Shown in pieces: positions 1,921 to 63,998 of a DNA stretch of 64,000 nucleotides; position 1 is the stretch's first letter; each line of letters starts with the position of its first letter. The stretch comes from Sulfurimonas sp. CG01_land_8_20_14_3_00_36_23. Its GTDB lineage: Bacteria > Campylobacterota > Campylobacteria > Campylobacterales > Sulfurimonadaceae. A program made the position numbers and the translations under genes. The stretch spans positions 13,556 through 77,555 of the forward strand of contig PETN01000010.1 in the NCBI GenBank assembly GCA_002781365.1. The letters are read 5' to 3'. Under the pieces are notes generated by a model. The model was not told the DNA's origin, searched no databases, and was given only the letters and a program-made list of their open reading frames with translations.

Positions 1921-1960
1921 CTCTAAGGGGCTGGATTTTCAGCCCCTTAGAGACCTTTTT
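1921..1960 (+). terminator. Intrinsic terminator after metY
   Basis: 13-bp stem CTCTAAGGGGCTG/CAGCCCCTTAGAG (1921-1952), 6-nt loop, then ACCTTTTT. Confidence 0.75.
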
Positions 1961-4147: not shown

Positions 4148-4819
4148 ATGATGCAATATTTTCACAGACAAGTACAACTTTGGGGAGAAGAGACGCAGAT
4201 GCTCCTTCAAACAAAAAGAGTAGCCATCATAGGTTCTGGAGGTCTTGGAAGCTCCTTAGCTTTTGCTTTGGGAGCGAGCGGAATAGGTGAAATCCACATG
4301 GTGGATTTTGATGAAGTAAGCCATCACAACATTCACCGCCAAATCGCTTTTAAGCTCGGGGATGAAAAGAAAAACAAAGCAGTTATCAATGCACAAATTA
4401 TCCAAGAGAGATCCCCTTTTGTAAAAGCATTTGCACATGAATGCGATTTTAATGCCTTCTCACAAAAAGGGATTGAAGTCGATTTGATTCTCGATGCAAC
4501 AGATAATCTTCCAAGCCGTGGAGAGATTAACGCCTATGCAAAAACAAAAGCTCTTCCTTGGGTCTATGGGAGTGTAGAGGCTTTTCACGGGCAAGTCGCT
4601 TTTATAGAGGAGTCCTCATTTAGTGATGCTTTTAAAATTATAAAAAAAGCACCTGCAGGGATTGCCGCACCTATCGTGATGCATATCGCCTCACTACAAG
4701 CAAATCTAGCACTAAGATATTTAGCAGGACTCACTGTTAAGAAAGATTTGCTCTACTATCTCTGCTTTAATGATGAGGGTGAATTGATTACGCAAAAATT
4801 TGGACTTCCAAAAGCGTAA
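4148..4819 (+). CDS. ThiF/MoeB family adenylyltransferase
   Basis: RQVQLWG, GSGGLG, VDFDEVSHHNIHRQ, DATDN. Confidence 0.85.
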   Translation: MMQYFHRQVQLWGEETQMLLQTKRVAIIGSGGLGSSLAFALGASGIGEIHMVDFDEVSHHNIHRQIAFKLGDEKKNKAVINAQIIQERSPFVKAFAHECDFNAFSQKGIEVDLILDATDNLPSRGEINAYAKTKALPWVYGSVEAFHGQVAFIEESSFSDAFKIIKKAPAGIAAPIVMHIASLQANLALRYLAGLTVKKDLLYYLCFNDEGELITQKFGLPKA

Positions 4820-4847
4820 GATTTAAAACTCTTTGTGTGTTTGAGAG

Positions 4848-4877
4848 TTGGCATGTGGAAATATTTCCACATGCCAA
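4848..4877. terminator. Perfect 30-bp palindrome made of two inverted copies of the 13-mer motif; likely bidirectional terminator
   Basis: TTGGCATGTGGAA-ATAT-TTCCACATGCCAA between convergent stops at 4819 (+) and 4906 (-). Confidence 0.75.
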
Positions 4878-4905
4878 AAAAGAGAAGGTTACATTGAAGA
4901 GAAGA

Positions 4906-5310
4906 TTAGAAAGAAGCGATATGTCGAGAAACTAAACGAATATCTTCTGCGCTCAATTTAGAGACTTGACCATGCATAATAGCTTTAAACTCGCCACCGT
5001 ATGTTCCATTTTGATAACCGACTAATGCCGCACTTACACGCTCAGCCGACCAACCATTAATAACTTGCGATTTTCCAAGTGCTGTATTTTTTGCATTGTG
5101 TCCGTGACAACTTGCACACGCTCTAAAGATGGTTGCACCATCATTTTGTACCACTTTTTTTGGCTCACTTAGTACAAGTTCTTGGGACTTCTCTTTAAAA
5201 ATTCCATCTGCTGAAACTTTTTGCAAGATATTTATATCATCACTGCATCCAGTAAATAAAAAAAGTAATATCGTTAAGGTTATGAGTTTCACACTAGCTT
5301 CCTTGTTCAA
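4906..5310 (-). CDS. Monoheme c-type cytochrome (c553-like), probable lipoprotein
   Basis: CASCH heme motif, distal Met (KAIMHGQ), LFTGC lipobox. Confidence 0.85.
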   Translation of the reverse strand: MNKEASVKLITLTILLFLFTGCSDDINILQKVSADGIFKEKSQELVLSEPKKVVQNDGATIFRACASCHGHNAKNTALGKSQVINGWSAERVSAALVGYQNGTYGGEFKAIMHGQVSKLSAEDIRLVSRHIASF

Positions 5311-21275: not shown

Positions 21276-23900
21276 ATGTCAAACGGCTATAACACACAAG
21301 AGACAGAAAACAATTTTTACAAAATTTGGGAGCAGAGAAGATACTTCGAAATAGATGGCAACAAAGCTATCCAAGAAGAGGGAAAAAATTTTTCTATCAT
21401 GATGCCTCCTCCAAATGTCACTGGTCGTCTGCATATCGGTCACGCACTTACCTTTACACTTCAAGATATTATCACACGTTACAAAAGAATGGATGGCTAT
21501 AAAACACTTTGGCAACCAGGAACCGATCACGCAGGAATCGCTACACAAAATGTTGTGGAGAAACAACTCCTTGCAGAAGGAACAACCAAAGAGGAAATCG
21601 GACGTGAAGCCTTCTTAAAGCGTGCTTGGGAGTGGAAAGCAGAGTCTGCTGGAATCATGACAGAACAACTCCGTAAAATGGGTGTATCTCCTGCTTGGGA
21701 GCGAGAGCGTTTTACAATGGATGCTGGGCTTCAAAAATCTGTTAAAGAGGCTTTTGTTCATCTTTACAATGAGGGTCTGATTATTCGTGGAAACTACATG
21801 GTGAACTGGTGTACACATGATGGTGCGCTCTCTGACATCGAAGTTGAACACGAAGATCATGATGGAAAATTTTACTACATGAAGTACCCATTTGCTGATG
21901 GCAGTGGGCATGTGGAAGTTGCAACAACAAGACCTGAAACATACTTTGGCGATACAGCTGTCATGGTACACCCTGATGATGAGCGCTATAAAGCTTTAAT
22001 CGGCAAAAAAATCAAACTTCCTCTTCTTGATAGAGAAGTAGCAATCATTGCCGATTCGCATGTGGAAATGGATTTTGGAACAGGTGTGGTAAAAGTAACT
22101 CCTGCGCATGACCAAAACGATTATGAAGTTGGAAAACGCCACGATTTAGAGTTTATTACTGTCTTTGATGAGAAAGGGATTTTAAACGACTATGCAGGAG
22201 AGTTCAAAGGTTTAGAGCGTCTTGAGGCGCGTGAAATTATTGTAAAACGTCTTGATGAAGAGGGCTTTATGATTAAAATTGAAGATCATAAACACCAAGT
22301 TGGACACTGTTACAGATGTAAAAATATTGTAGAGCCTTACATCTCAAAACAGTGGTTTGTTCGTAAAGAGGTAGCCGATAAATCCATCGAAAAAACAAAT
22401 GCTGGCGAAGCGAAGTTCTTCCCTCCTCACTGGATAAACTCCTACAACTCTTGGATGGGTGATTTACGTGACTGGTGTATCTCTCGTCAACTTTGGTGGG
22501 GACATCAGATTCCAGTATTTTACTGTGATGATTGTGAACACGAATTTGCAAGTCAAGAGGAGCGTCCAGAGAGTTGTCCTAAATGTGCCTCTAAAAATCT
22601 AACGCAAGACCCTGATGTTCTTGATACTTGGTTTAGCTCTGCTTTATGGCCTTTTTCAACTTTAGGTTGGGGTCAAGGCGATGTGGAGATGGACAAGCTT
22701 TTTCAATCCAACGATATGAAAGATTTCTATCCAAATACGCTTCTTATCACAGGTTTTGACATCCTTTTCTTTTGGGTTGCTAGAATGATGATGATGGGTG
22801 AGAACTTCAATGGAGAACTTCCATTTAACCACATCTACCTTCATGCACTCGTACGTGATGAGAATGGCGACAAGATGAGTAAATCCAAAGGAAATGTTAT
22901 TGACCCTTTAGATATGGTCAACAAATATAGTGCTGATATTTTGAGATTTACACTTGCAATCTCTGCAGCACAAGGGCGTGATATTCGTATGAGTACGGAA
23001 AAACTTGAACAAAACCGTAACTTTACAAACAAACTTATCAATGCAGCAAAATACCTTCAGATGAATGTAGAGACTTTTCCTGATATGAGCGGTTTTTGTG
23101 TTGAGACAGATTTGGGTCGTTACATGATGTCTCGTCTTAATTTTGCAACAAAAGAGGTTCGTGCGTCTCTTGATGAGTACAAATTTAATGATGCGGCACT
23201 TGTGATGTATAAATTTCTTTGGAATGAGTTTTGTGACTGGGGAATAGAGCTTAGTAAAGCAGATAAAGGCTCGATTGTAGAACTTGGTGCTATTTTTAAA
23301 GAGGCTATGAAACTTCTACATCCGTTTATGCCTTTCATCACAGAGTATCTCTACCATCAACTCTCTGGAACTTCACTTCAAGAGAGTGACTCTATTATGA
23401 TTCAGAAATTCCCTTTTAAAACAAAGCAGAGAAAAGAGGAGAGAAAATTTGAAATCATTATGGATGCGATTGTCTCTATCAGACGTGCAAAAGTTTTAGT
23501 TGACTTGGCAAACCAAAAAATCGAAAAAGCTTTTGTCAAAATCGATGGAGTAAGTGATGAAGACAGAGCGATGATGCTTCCTTTCATCACACGACTTGCA
23601 AAAGTTGAAGTTTTAGAGTTTACAGAGATAAAAGTAGAAAATGCAGTAAGCGATATTGCTGATTTTTGTGAGACTTTCATTCCGACAGATTCCATCGACT
23701 TAAGCTCTATTATCTCCAAGTTACAAAAACAGGATGAAAAACTGCAAAAAGAGATAGATAAACTCTCTAATATGCTAAGCAATGAGAGATTTGTAGCCAA
23801 TGCACCTGAAGATGTTCTCGCTAAAAACCGTGAGTTATTGGCGGATGCTTCAACAAAACAGAGTAAAGTCTTAGAACAACTCCACTCCCTTCAAAAATAA
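21276..23900 (+). CDS. valS: Valine--tRNA ligase
   Basis: PPPNVTGRLHIGH, PGTDHAGIATQ, DWCISRQLWWGH, KMSKS. Confidence 0.97.
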   Translation: MSNGYNTQETENNFYKIWEQRRYFEIDGNKAIQEEGKNFSIMMPPPNVTGRLHIGHALTFTLQDIITRYKRMDGYKTLWQPGTDHAGIATQNVVEKQLLAEGTTKEEIGREAFLKRAWEWKAESAGIMTEQLRKMGVSPAWERERFTMDAGLQKSVKEAFVHLYNEGLIIRGNYMVNWCTHDGALSDIEVEHEDHDGKFYYMKYPFADGSGHVEVATTRPETYFGDTAVMVHPDDERYKALIGKKIKLPLLDREVAIIADSHVEMDFGTGVVKVTPAHDQNDYEVGKRHDLEFITVFDEKGILNDYAGEFKGLERLEAREIIVKRLDEEGFMIKIEDHKHQVGHCYRCKNIVEPYISKQWFVRKEVADKSIEKTNAGEAKFFPPHWINSYNSWMGDLRDWCISRQLWWGHQIPVFYCDDCEHEFASQEERPESCPKCASKNLTQDPDVLDTWFSSALWPFSTLGWGQGDVEMDKLFQSNDMKDFYPNTLLITGFDILFFWVARMMMMGENFNGELPFNHIYLHALVRDENGDKMSKSKGNVIDPLDMVNKYSADILRFTLAISAAQGRDIRMSTEKLEQNRNFTNKLINAAKYLQMNVETFPDMSGFCVETDLGRYMMSRLNFATKEVRASLDEYKFNDAALVMYKFLWNEFCDWGIELSKADKGSIVELGAIFKEAMKLLHPFMPFITEYLYHQLSGTSLQESDSIMIQKFPFKTKQRKEERKFEIIMDAIVSIRRAKVLVDLANQKIEKAFVKIDGVSDEDRAMMLPFITRLAKVEVLEFTEIKVENAVSDIADFCETFIPTDSIDLSSIISKLQKQDEKLQKEIDKLSNMLSNERFVANAPEDVLAKNRELLADASTKQSKVLEQLHSLQK

Positions 23901-23909
23901 CTTCTTAGA

Positions 23910-23929
23910 GTTCCGAGTCTTCTCGGAAC
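23910..23929 (+). terminator. Hairpin after valS
   Basis: GTTCCGAG-TCTT-CTCGGAAC, 10 nt after the stop; weak U-tract. Confidence 0.5.
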
Positions 23930-24116
23930 AGATACATTTTCCCTTTTTCTCAACGCATTACTCCTACATAGTGTAGATAAGTGTAAGCTTTTATCAAGCA
24001 TAGAATATGCATAGAGGTTAGTAACTTCTTTTAAGAGCGCAATAGCATGCTCCATTTCCTTACAGTGCTTCAAAACAACCTTAATCGGATACAATCCACA
24101 ACTCAAGGAAATACGA

Positions 24117-28965: not shown

Positions 28966-29000
28966 CTTGGCATGTGGAAGTATAACTTCCACATGCCAAA
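28966..29000. terminator. Inverted pair of the 13-mer motif; likely bidirectional terminator
   Basis: TTGGCATGTGGAAGT-ATA-ACTTCCACATGCCAA (28967-28999), 15-bp stem between convergent yqeY and trpC stops. Confidence 0.75.
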
Positions 29001-42262: not shown

Positions 42263-42302
42263 TTTGGCATGTGGAAATGTATTAGCATGTGGAAATGTAT
42301 TA
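42263..42302. repeat. 18-bp tandem duplication holding two motif copies
   Basis: GCATGTGGAAATGTATTA at 42267-42284 and 42285-42302, between convergent stops. Confidence 0.9.
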
Positions 42303-61033: not shown

Positions 61034-62027
61034 AAATTCATCTCTAGAAATTCTAAAAAATAAGAAAAACCTCCTAGCCTTTTCAGCGGGAGTAGATTCA
61101 ACTGCTCTCTTCTTTTTACTTCTACAGAACAACATTCCATTTGATATTGCAATAGTCAATTACAATGTCAGAGAGCAGAGTCAAGAAGAGCTGCAATACG
61201 CGCATGAGTTAGCAAGCACGCACAACCTTAAAATTCACTCTTTGAATGCCCCAAAAATAGATAAAAACTTTGAAGCAAAAGCCAGAGAAATCAGATACAA
61301 CTTTTTTGAAGAACTTATTAAGAATCATGGCTATGAGAACTTAATTACTGCACACCATCTTGGGGATAGGTTCGAGTGGATGCTTATGCAATTTTGTAAA
61401 GGTGCTGGCTGTGCTGAGATTGCAGGTATGCAAAGAGTGCAACACAGAGACTCCTACACACTCGTGCGCCCACTACTGAAGTTAGACAAAAAAGAGTTAT
61501 TCGCCTATTTAGATGCGAACAAGATTAAATATTTTGAAGATGAGAGTAATCTTGATGAGGATATAAAAAGAAACTCTTTTCGTCACAGTTATGCTTCTCC
61601 ACTTTTAGAGAAATACCTAGCGGGAATCAAAAAGAGTTTTGACTATTTAGATGAAGATAGAGCCTCTTTAATTCAAGAAGCAGAGATAAACAATATAGAT
61701 GCGTTTGCGTACTTCAAAATGCAACACAATAGAAGATCTGACATTTTTATAATAGACAAATATTTAAAATCAAAATCTTATATGCTAAGTGCAAGTGAAA
61801 GAGAACTGCTTAAAACAGTAAATGTTGCGGTTGTTGGGAGAAAGTTTGTAATCAATATAGAGAGATGTTTTGTATTTATTCTTCCCTATCTACAAAAGAG
61901 TTTCCACATGCCAAAAGAGTTTAAAGAGGAGTGCAGAGTATTAAAGATAGAACCAAAACTACGACTCTACCTCTACAAGAATCCAGAGGCTTTTTTAAAG
62001 ATAAAAGAGCTACTTCGTACTATTTGA
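61026..62027 (+). CDS. tilS: tRNA(Ile)-lysidine synthetase
   Basis: AFSAGVDS, AREIRY, TAHHLGD, RPLL, FEDESN..RNSFR. Confidence 0.93.
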   Translation: MLENSSLEILKNKKNLLAFSAGVDSTALFFLLLQNNIPFDIAIVNYNVREQSQEELQYAHELASTHNLKIHSLNAPKIDKNFEAKAREIRYNFFEELIKNHGYENLITAHHLGDRFEWMLMQFCKGAGCAEIAGMQRVQHRDSYTLVRPLLKLDKKELFAYLDANKIKYFEDESNLDEDIKRNSFRHSYASPLLEKYLAGIKKSFDYLDEDRASLIQEAEINNIDAFAYFKMQHNRRSDIFIIDKYLKSKSYMLSASERELLKTVNVAVVGRKFVINIERCFVFILPYLQKSFHMPKEFKEECRVLKIEPKLRLYLYKNPEAFLKIKELLRTI

Positions 62028-62552
62028 GTCTCTGTTTGCGCAGTAAACTTTCATCGTAAAACTAGAACGAATTGTTTGTGCTTCTCTTTTAAAATGTATC
62101 GGAAAATTTACACCAATTATCCAATCACTTTTGTTGATTGCATCCAAGAAATCATAAAAACTTTTTGGTGAATTAATCTGTGAACTCGTTTCAACTTCAT
62201 AAACCAAAAACTCCTCTTCTTTATCTTTAGAATCTTTAATCTGCGCAAGAGAGAGTGAATCAAAGTAAACTTTATGTTGTTTTTCAAATCTTTGAGCATT
62301 AAATGTGTTATCAAAAGAGGTAATAATATGCCTATGATCACTTTGAAGTTTTTTCAAAATTTCCAAAGTCTCATCATGGAAGTTTTGATATTTTTTTAGC
62401 TCAAAGTTATCATTTCTTAATTCTAGTTTTTGTTCTCTGTACTCTTTCCCTTTAGGTATCAAAACTAAAAATGAAAATAGAAGAACAAAAATAAGTAAAA
62501 GTGTTGATAATATCAGTAAATATATATTTTGACGAGCAATATTAATCTTCAT
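62010..62552 (-). CDS. PilO/GspM-like bitopic membrane protein
   Basis: N-terminal TM, coiled coil, ferredoxin-like C-terminus (FYDFLDAIN..II.V); third gene of a coupled trio. Confidence 0.55.
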   Translation of the reverse strand: MKINIARQNIYLLILSTLLLIFVLLFSFLVLIPKGKEYREQKLELRNDNFELKKYQNFHDETLEILKKLQSDHRHIITSFDNTFNAQRFEKQHKVYFDSLSLAQIKDSKDKEEEFLVYEVETSSQINSPKSFYDFLDAINKSDWIIGVNFPIHFKREAQTIRSSFTMKVYCANRDSNSTK

Positions 62553-63117
62553 TACTTGTCTCCTCAATATTCTTGTTTTGCTTAGCATCCGCATCATTAT
62601 AGGTACTCAATCCATCATCTTCGATATAGTTCGTGGAAACAAACCTAAGCCATCCATTTTTATCAGGGTAAAAGCTACTATAGCTCTTATGAAAGATAGA
62701 ACGAAGAGGGGCTTGGAGCATAAAGTTATATACATCCTCGTTTGGAGTGATACCATGAAGTATCAAGCCATTTTCAAGCAATGAAGCTTCTGACAAAGTT
62801 ATTCTTTGTGGAACCAAATCAAATAGATTCGCGATAGAATCTTTTAGAACAATATTTTGCGTATAAATTCTCTCAGAGAGTAGTGCTTCTTTCTCTATAA
62901 AAGTAATTTGTGTATTCATGGAAGATTGTGAGATACTTAAATTTTCTCGCTCTTGATATATCTCTGCTTTATCTTGCGCAAATCTATACTCTTTAAAAAG
63001 TAAAAAAGCATATGTCAACAATAACATACAGAGTGTGATTCCAAAAAAGATAAAGAGTAGCTGTAACTCAGGAGTGATAATACTCTTTTTTCTGGCTTTA
63101 GTATAACTGTATTTCAT
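62542..63117 (-). CDS. PilN-like bitopic membrane protein
   Basis: Basic N-terminus, TM, coiled coil, ITLSEASLLENGLILHG; ATGA overlap with the upstream stop. Confidence 0.55.
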   Translation of the reverse strand: MKYSYTKARKKSIITPELQLLFIFFGITLCMLLLTYAFLLFKEYRFAQDKAEIYQERENLSISQSSMNTQITFIEKEALLSERIYTQNIVLKDSIANLFDLVPQRITLSEASLLENGLILHGITPNEDVYNFMLQAPLRSIFHKSYSSFYPDKNGWLRFVSTNYIEDDGLSTYNDADAKQNKNIEETSNED

Positions 63118-63998
63118 TCTAACTCCGCCTTTGCTAAAGCACAAACTTCACTAGGTAAATCAATTCGACGAACAAAAACATTCAAGAACATCTCATCTTC
63201 TAAATATCTCTTCAAGTCACTACTTACACCAACACCATCCGCTATAAAGACGGATTCAATAAATTTGCTTTGAAATTTATCATCTTTGTAAAAACGATTT
63301 ACAGAACTTTTAATGAGTGAAAACCTTTGATAATCTTCATTAAATCCTTCCGAATCATTTCCTGAATACTCATTATCATCTTTTATATAGTCCTCTTCAT
63401 CTTCCTCTTTTATATCAGAGAAATCATCCATATCATCAAATGAGTCTAAGTCTTCTATATCTCCAAAATCATCTAACTCACCTATATCAGCATCATCTTC
63501 AATATTAATATCATCTAGATTTACACTTGACTCTAAGTCAAAATCTTGCATTGAATCATCATCCATTGAAAGGTCATCTTTATCTTTAGCGTGATTCAAA
63601 TCTAAATGCTCGCTAAAGAGTAACTCAGAGTGATCAAAAACACTTAGACTAATAAAGCTCTCTTCAATCAATAAATACATCGACATATGCGTATCAATTT
63701 TATCTTTGAAAAATCTAGCTAAAAGCACAAAAGGGGAAAATACAAAGTCAAGCCCTATTCGTCCATATACTTTTTGTAAGGTGTGCAAATCTATACTTGA
63801 AGTATAGTACGTCCATCTATCCGCATAACAGAGATGTTTTGAAGAGCTGACATCAAAAAAATCTACTATCTCTCGACTTTTGCATGTTGCTACCGCACCT
63901 TGTGCAAGAGAAGTATCTAAGATTGATATATAAAAGTAAGGGGATTCATTGACATAGGTATGTATAAAATTATACATTTTTGCATTTATTGTAGTGGT
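63114..63998 (-). CDS. PilM-like cytoplasmic protein with acidic insert (5' truncated by window)
   Basis: Frame is open to the window edge; C-terminal IESVFIADG.G..DLKRYL resembles the PilM/FtsA tail. Confidence 0.5.
   Translation of the reverse strand, partial: TTTINAKMYNFIHTYVNESPYFYISILDTSLAQGAVATCKSREIVDFFDVSSSKHLCYADRWTYYTSSIDLHTLQKVYGRIGLDFVFSPFVLLARFFKDKIDTHMSMYLLIEESFISLSVFDHSELLFSEHLDLNHAKDKDDLSMDDDSMQDFDLESSVNLDDINIEDDADIGELDDFGDIEDLDSFDDMDDFSDIKEEDEEDYIKDDNEYSGNDSEGFNEDYQRFSLIKSSVNRFYKDDKFQSKFIESVFIADGVGVSSDLKRYLEDEMFLNVFVRRIDLPSEVCALAKAELE

Follow-up and report, generated by a model that had tools for sequence, protein, structure and literature searches.

The 64,000-nucleotide stretch of DNA analysed here (the window; C78:13556-77555) belongs to a Sulfurimonas assembly, G000, of 2.43 Mb in 102 contigs with a G+C content of 35.9%. 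Within it, a ThiF-family gene and a cytochrome c gene converge on an 86-bp intergenic gap, in the centre of which lies a palindrome, TTGGCATGTGGAA-ATAT-TTCCACATGCCAA (Table 1). Both arms are exact copies of one 13-mer on opposite strands and, because the ATAT spacer is itself self-complementary, all 30 bp of the DNA form a perfect palindrome. A first-pass annotation of the window had described the palindrome, its construction from two head-to-head motif copies and its position between two convergent genes; the coordinates and the Pfam matches of both gene products bear this description out. The annotation had also placed a run of five A to the right of the palindrome. An A-run is present there, but it comprises four A beyond the arm, or six when the AA of the arm itself is counted. 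Read as RNA, either strand forms a stem of 13 bp closed by a loop of 4 nt. The 86-bp gap folds at between −23 and −28.5 kcal/mol, with a z score of about −5.6 relative to shuffled sequences, and the centroid fold of its − strand consists of this stem only, at −21 kcal/mol. A second head-to-head pair of the same word, independently built, lies in another convergent gap of the window. As the annotation had stated, the two hairpins have nothing in common beyond their two word copies; loops and flanks differ.

Table 1 Coordinates of the features described in the text. Positions without a contig or locus prefix refer to the window.
Feature	Position	Strand	Details
ThiF-family gene, 3′ end toward the hairpin	4148-4819	+	PF00899, E 4e-39
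Convergent intergenic gap, 86 bp, palindrome centred	4820-4905	.	28 nt to each stop codon
Left arm, TTGGCATGTGGAA	4848-4860	-	exact 13-mer match; equals TTCCACATGCCAA read on the − strand
Spacer ATAT, 4-nt loop of the RNA hairpin	4861-4864	.	self-complementary
Right arm, TTCCACATGCCAA, second word copy	4865-4877	+	exact 13-mer match
Cytochrome c gene, 3′ end toward the hairpin	4906-5310	-	PF00034, E 4e-5
Second head-to-head pair of the same word	28967-28999	.	loop GTATAAC; another convergent gap
Canonical two-way terminator	1921-1952		CTCTAAGGGGCTGG..CCAGCCCCTTAGAG
Tandem word arrays	42264-42294; G000 C13:1-100, C86:4700-4793, C94:1-95, C37:2050-2170, C75:35320-35420
Triple word array, G138	G138 C42:5751-5799
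‘PilMNO-like’ trio	62010-63998; L102:1170-3061		three small overlapping genes
Secretin of C15	G000:C15:83006-84298		431 aa
comEC pieces, G114	G114 C15:14716-15228 and 23346-24113		about 8 kb apart
Word-free surface-polysaccharide cluster	G000:C8:1736-18118		28.9% GC
Word-free defence island	G000:C61:1-17253		31% GC
Word-free rTCA block	G000:C10:3534-24996		21 kb

The arms are copies of a word that is dispersed over the whole genome. Its consensus is ATTTCCACATGCCAAA, built around the 10-mer core TCCACATGCC, and its logo reads A-T-T-TCCACATGCC-A-A-A; nothing is conserved outside the logo, which sets the limit at approximately 16 bp. The word, 13–16 bp long, is asymmetric and is not itself a palindrome. 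With at most one mismatch, the 13-mer occurs 23 times in the 64-kb window, compared with 0.13 occurrences expected. Genome-wide, GCATGTGGA is found 1,083 times, the 10-mer core 905 times and the 13-mer 534 times, corresponding to observed/expected ratios of approximately 530 for the 10-mer and 9,500 for the 13-mer under a zero-order expectation (about 0.06 copies for the latter). The word is the top k-mer of the genome at k = 9 to 15. Its two orientations are balanced, with 277 copies of the 13-mer on the + strand and 257 on the − strand. Orientation relative to the sign of the local GC skew (183/183 and 83/62) reveals no replication skew, and there is little link to the strand of the surrounding genes (318/273). 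Approximately 590 copies (65%) lie wholly within open reading frames (ORFs), with a strong frame preference, and 31% lie in the intergenic 9% of the genome, giving the word a density per kb in spacers five times that in genes. None of the IMG/VR phage contigs was dense in the word.

The word is reflected in codon choice. In an alignment of the ValRS gene from 61 genomes, word-bearing genomes read GGG CAT GTG GAA at a conserved G-H-V-E site: GTG is used in 12 of the 15 that have these residues, compared with 0 of the 12 word-free genomes with the same residues (nominal p 4e-5, which is overstated since relatives are not independent). Synonymous codons are thus bent to spell the word. At a second ValRS site, where nearly all other genomes have GAT (D), G000 has GAA (E), completing CATGTGGAA. 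Word-free stretches of at least 14 kb number nine, compared with about two expected, and three of them were annotated. One is a surface-polysaccharide cluster of low G+C content, and another is a defence island that encodes a type I restriction–modification system (HsdM/S/R), HamA with a helicase (Hachiman), GmrSD and Fic. The longest is not foreign DNA: it is a core block of the reductive tricarboxylic acid cycle (rTCA), with genes for monomeric IDH, MDH, fumarase, succinyl-CoA synthetase and 2-oxoacid:ferredoxin oxidoreductase, which suggests that strong coding constraint excludes the word from it.

Single copies are found within genes and in spacers, but pairs are placed more narrowly. We took non-overlapping long ORFs as gene calls (2,300 genes covering 91% of the genome) and defined pairs as neighbouring word copies at most 60 bp apart. 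Head-to-head pairs (53) outnumber tail-to-tail pairs (24; p = 0.0013). The genome-wide census of inverted pairs at gene ends that the first-pass annotation had proposed shows the predicted enrichment, most clearly between convergent genes: head-to-head pairs occupy 16 of 194 convergent gaps (8.2%), 21 of 1059 tandem gaps (2.0%) and 3 of 252 divergent gaps (1.2%; convergent versus divergent, p = 2.7e-4), and only five lie within genes. Pair density is 0.24 per kb in spacers and 0.002 per kb in genes, a difference of approximately 100 times. In tandem gaps, the pairs are close to the upstream stop codon. Single copies are spread approximately evenly over convergent, tandem and divergent gaps, and the skew is therefore a property of pairs. 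Pairs at first seemed to favour the 3′ side of + strand genes (19 versus 2), but the difference shrank to 17 versus 7 in a mismatch-tolerant count and was taken as chance.

Word pairs account for a large share of the hairpins that follow genes. Among 869 gene 3′ ends with a gap of at least 25 nt, 275 have a stable hairpin (−7 kcal/mol or better), and at least 75 of these hairpins (27%) are word pairs, a lower bound because some pairs with 9-mer arms were scored as ‘other’. At convergent ends, the share is 51 of 129 (40%). The word-pair hairpins have a mean energy of −20.5 kcal/mol, compared with −11.9 kcal/mol for the rest, and begin a median of 12 nt past the stop codon. Across the genome, there are 108 perfect inverted repeats when arms must be 12 nt or longer and loops 10 nt or shorter, and 56 of them are built from the word. 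Within pairs, the core is invariant and the arms are near-perfect word copies, and the stem consequently offers no covariation evidence.

These hairpins do not look like textbook terminators. The stem at 4848-4877 is symmetric, stable and G+C-containing, lies 28 nt past both stop codons and has the same fold in both transcripts, as in a bidirectional intrinsic terminator; unlike intrinsic terminators, it has no U-tract on either strand, the tails being AAAAAAGAG (+) and CUCUCAAAC (−). The flanking T-run and A-run are on the wrong sides for both transcripts, and a scan for canonical terminators did not call the site. The reading of the hairpin as a canonical terminator was therefore rejected; the same scan found 17 terminator-like sites in the window, no more than in shuffled sequences (14.7). 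It does call a textbook two-way terminator with T-rich tails, one of the few canonical terminators in the first 20 kb of the window. Five or more T in the 8-nt tail are found in 12% of word hairpins and in 12–18% of the other 3′ hairpins. As the other 3′ hairpins are equally T-poor, hairpins without U-tracts are the style of this genome rather than a special defect of the word pairs. A search of Rfam returned only sub-threshold chance matches (U7 snRNA, 27.5 bits, compared with a gathering score of 34). From its position and stability, it is plausible that the hairpin at 4848-4877 forms or protects the 3′ ends of both transcripts.

The word is patchily distributed among relatives. At up to two mismatches, it is enriched in at least 17 (17–18) of the 151 genomes of the genus that were sampled, with 128 to 1,603 matches compared with about 20–50 for the control. 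The identical 13-mer is present in bulk in G138 and G093, and the 10-mer core ranks first among k-mers in unbiased samples of G101, G165 and G117. In G101, pairs also lie directly past stop codons, at non-orthologous places. By contrast with these genomes, a sample of G019 contained scattered one- and two-mismatch variants only, and counts are similarly low in the other members of its clade (G109, G114 and G146), which looks like decay of the word after the drive had ended. On the ValRS tree, word-bearing genomes are clustered without forming one clade (7 changes, compared with 16.3 for shuffled labels).

Other members of the genus carry a second word, the palindrome TACATGTA, which takes the form CTACATGTAG in G060 and TTACATGTAA in G016. 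It is found in approximately 26 genomes at 10–25 times the control (440–850 sites per genome, compared with 30–70 for the reversed control), mostly in genes; carriers of this type of word include G060, G016, G092, G145, G136 and G009. The two words, TTCCACATGCCAA and TACATGTA, are mutually exclusive, except in G125, which has both, and they have ACATG in common. The palindrome at 4848-4877 itself is young. At the orthologous junction of G138, the nearest relative that carries the word (L097, G138:C103), just 3′ of the ThiF orthologue, there is a different, 8-bp hairpin, CAAGTGGA-GAAT-TCCACTTG, and in G093, G060 and G092 the gene order at the ThiF/cytochrome c junction differs; the palindrome is thus lineage-specific. 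Compared with the word, each arm of the G138 hairpin has a change, and the two changes face each other in the stem (CATG to CAAG/CTTG) with pairing kept, a single case.

The reading that we prefer, to which we give a probability of about one half, is that two inverted copies of a word resembling an uptake sequence make up the palindrome, which may serve as a two-way 3′ hairpin. We propose that a lineage-specific, hyper-abundant word would have been distributed over the genome by a DNA-level process. We infer that this process would most likely be the preferential uptake, in natural transformation, of DNA that carries the word, with recombination as the next step, a molecular drive as proposed for the DNA uptake sequences (DUS) of Neisseriaceae and the uptake signal sequences (USS) of Pasteurellaceae. 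Single copies would settle at any tolerated site. Two copies placed head to head would form a 13–15-bp G+C-containing stem, and such pairs would be retained almost only just past stop codons, chiefly between convergent genes. There, the stem-loop would most likely act as a 3′-end hairpin for both transcripts, either as a terminator that functions without a U-tract or as a block to 3′ exonucleases.

The resemblance to DUS and USS is extensive. In both cases, a short asymmetric word is over-represented, at approximately one copy per 2–3 kb, and occurs on both strands without polarity. Approximately two thirds of the copies are genic, spacers are enriched and coding sequence is bent to spell the word. 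Inverted pairs form head-to-head stems just past stop codons and make up at least a quarter of 3′ hairpins, and the words are common to related species, with dialects, and depleted in some islands, although the distribution in Sulfurimonas is patchier than that in Neisseriaceae. USS account for up to 22% of terminators, and DUS for up to 37% (PMC13020248). More than 70–90% of DUS and USS in inverted repeats lie within predicted terminators, and the distribution of DUS and USS between genes and intergenic DNA is similar to that of the word described here (10.1101/2025.10.24.684340). There are also differences. The Sulfurimonas sequence is unrelated to DUS and USS (TTCCACATGCCAA, compared with GCCGTCTGAA or AAGTGCGGT) and comes from another phylum, Campylobacterota; the Sulfurimonas words are patchy within one genus, at least two of them are dissimilar, and tandem arrays are present. 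Surveys from 2025–2026 name only Neisseriaceae and Pasteurellaceae (PMC13020248; 10.1101/2025.10.24.684340), and in our literature search neither uptake sequences nor this word came up in any paper on Sulfurimonas or other Campylobacterota.

A further difference from DUS and USS concerns the receptor, as no ComP/ComN-type receptor was found among the filament proteins tested in Sulfurimonas. G000 encodes ComEC, an 83-aa ComEA-type protein, DprA, an MSHA-type pilus, a T2SS-like cluster and approximately nine pilin-like proteins. ComEC is present in 117 of 118 genomes of the genus, independent of the word. In G114, comEC is split into two pieces, with a stop codon in the second; it is intact in the sister genomes G109 and G019. 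The T2SS-like secretin of C44 occurs in 97 of 151 genomes regardless of the word, and the secretin of C15 is sporadic (14 of 151) and does not track it either; most matches to the C15 secretin elsewhere contain stop codons, and its possible sources are a mobile element and a filamentous phage. Two minor pilins are conserved equally in strong-word and decayed-word genomes. Thus, none of the four type IV filament proteins examined for presence (two secretins and two minor pilins) tracks the word, and nearly every genome of the genus has the competence genes, with or without the word, so that these do not discriminate. We rejected two other candidates. A 159-aa pilin encoded next to priA was promising as a receptor in five genomes, but its identity fails to follow the word across the genus. 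A ‘PilMNO-like’ trio of genes in the window yielded no Pfam match; it lies directly 3′ of a gene for a XerC/D-type tyrosine recombinase.

That the competence components examined do not track the word is one of several points in favour of the main rival reading, a HIP1-like iterated word spread by a substitution-biased process unrelated to uptake, which we consider possible but less probable. The drive might be, for example, methylation-linked or very-short-patch-type repair, or the binding of an abundant chromosomal protein, and inverted pairs would simply be accepted at gene 3′ ends, or be of use there as hairpins. HIP1 (GCGATCGC) is a cyanobacterial word that, like the Sulfurimonas word, is hyper-abundant both within and outside coding DNA, symmetric between strands, specific to clades and spelled out by bent codons. 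Both are substituted into genes and spacers. HIP1 is not known to have a role in uptake. The sister words of other Sulfurimonas species (TACATGTA, CTACATGTAG and TTACATGTAA) resemble HIP1 further in being truly palindromic and, in addition, are mostly genic, and ACATG, which includes the methylation target CATG, is found in both Sulfurimonas words. However, the TTCCACATGCCAA word is asymmetric and, at 13–16 bp, longer than typical methyltransferase sites and unlike the HIP palindromes. Its five-fold enrichment per kb in spacers and its long hairpin pairs at gene 3′ ends are features of DUS and USS and not of HIP1. The hairpin reading is unchanged under a HIP1-like origin of the word.

In transformation of Campylobacter jejuni, of the same phylum, DNA is discriminated by CtsM-dependent methylation at RAATTY, a short sequence mark that governs uptake. 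The RCATGY/CATG contained in the word described here is a plausible site of methylation, CATG being a common methylation target. The C. jejuni mark is, however, a methylated site of 6 bp, unlike the hyper-abundant 13–16-bp word described here.

It is improbable, in our estimate, that the hairpin itself was the selected object, as a terminator or RNA stabilizer, with the word serving as its most available building block. The skew towards 3′ gaps of pairs but not of single copies, the high stability of word-pair hairpins and the G138 junction, where a stem is kept although its sequence has changed (CAAGTGGA/TCCACTTG), would all fit. This explanation, however, leaves the approximately 590 genic copies and the bent codons unaccounted for, and arms selected for pairing would need only to be complementary, whereas those observed are near-perfect copies of the word. 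It is also compatible with either explanation of the word, and in that sense is not a full rival. Finally, a mobile palindromic element of the REP/BIME or MITE type, suggested by an intergenic palindrome repeated at many loci, and a polar signal of the Chi/KOPS type can be set aside with near certainty, as copies share no flanks, terminal repeats or target duplications, their loops vary, two thirds of them are in frame in conserved genes, where they arose by substitution, and there is no strand or replichore polarity. The first-pass annotation had likewise argued against a REP or MITE origin, and the end of conservation at approximately 16 bp, the 65% of copies within ORFs and the presence of copies as point substitutions in conserved genes agree with it. 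These results support the view that the palindrome was assembled from two copies of the dispersed word that are independent of each other and was not copied as a REP/MITE unit.

Returning to the uptake reading, we advance tentatively a wider proposal for the genus: Sulfurimonas may have its own self-DNA uptake words, as a third independent lineage to do so after Neisseriaceae and Pasteurellaceae, may have swapped TTCCACATGCCAA and TACATGTA between groups of species and may have recruited inverted pairs as two-way 3′ hairpins lacking U-tracts, which would make up a quarter to 40% of the stable post-gene stem-loops. For decades, only two families, both of Proteobacteria, have been known for sequence-specific DNA uptake. 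Were the uptake reading true of Sulfurimonas, whose members are free-living and oxidize sulfur, the origin and turnover of uptake specificity would be directly testable, because word-bearing species, species with a decayed word and species with another word are found in one genus, and adding the word to donor DNA would be a practical route to genetic tractability in Sulfurimonas. A substantial part of the hairpins at gene ends would also be accounted for in these genomes; standard terminator finders miss word-pair hairpins because these have no U-tracts. Were the word unrelated to uptake, it would instead represent a second example of a HIP-like genome-wide word, outside the cyanobacteria.

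The word also forms head-to-tail arrays, which neither DUS nor USS are known to form. Their period is 17–18 bp, for example (GTTTGGCATGTGGAAAT)n, with 5–6 or more units (Table 1). Several arrays reach the ends of contigs and probably break the assembly, as in C13, C86 and C94. Possible origins or roles are slippage, iteron-like protein binding or a function as ‘super-uptake’ sites. A similar triple array is present in G138.
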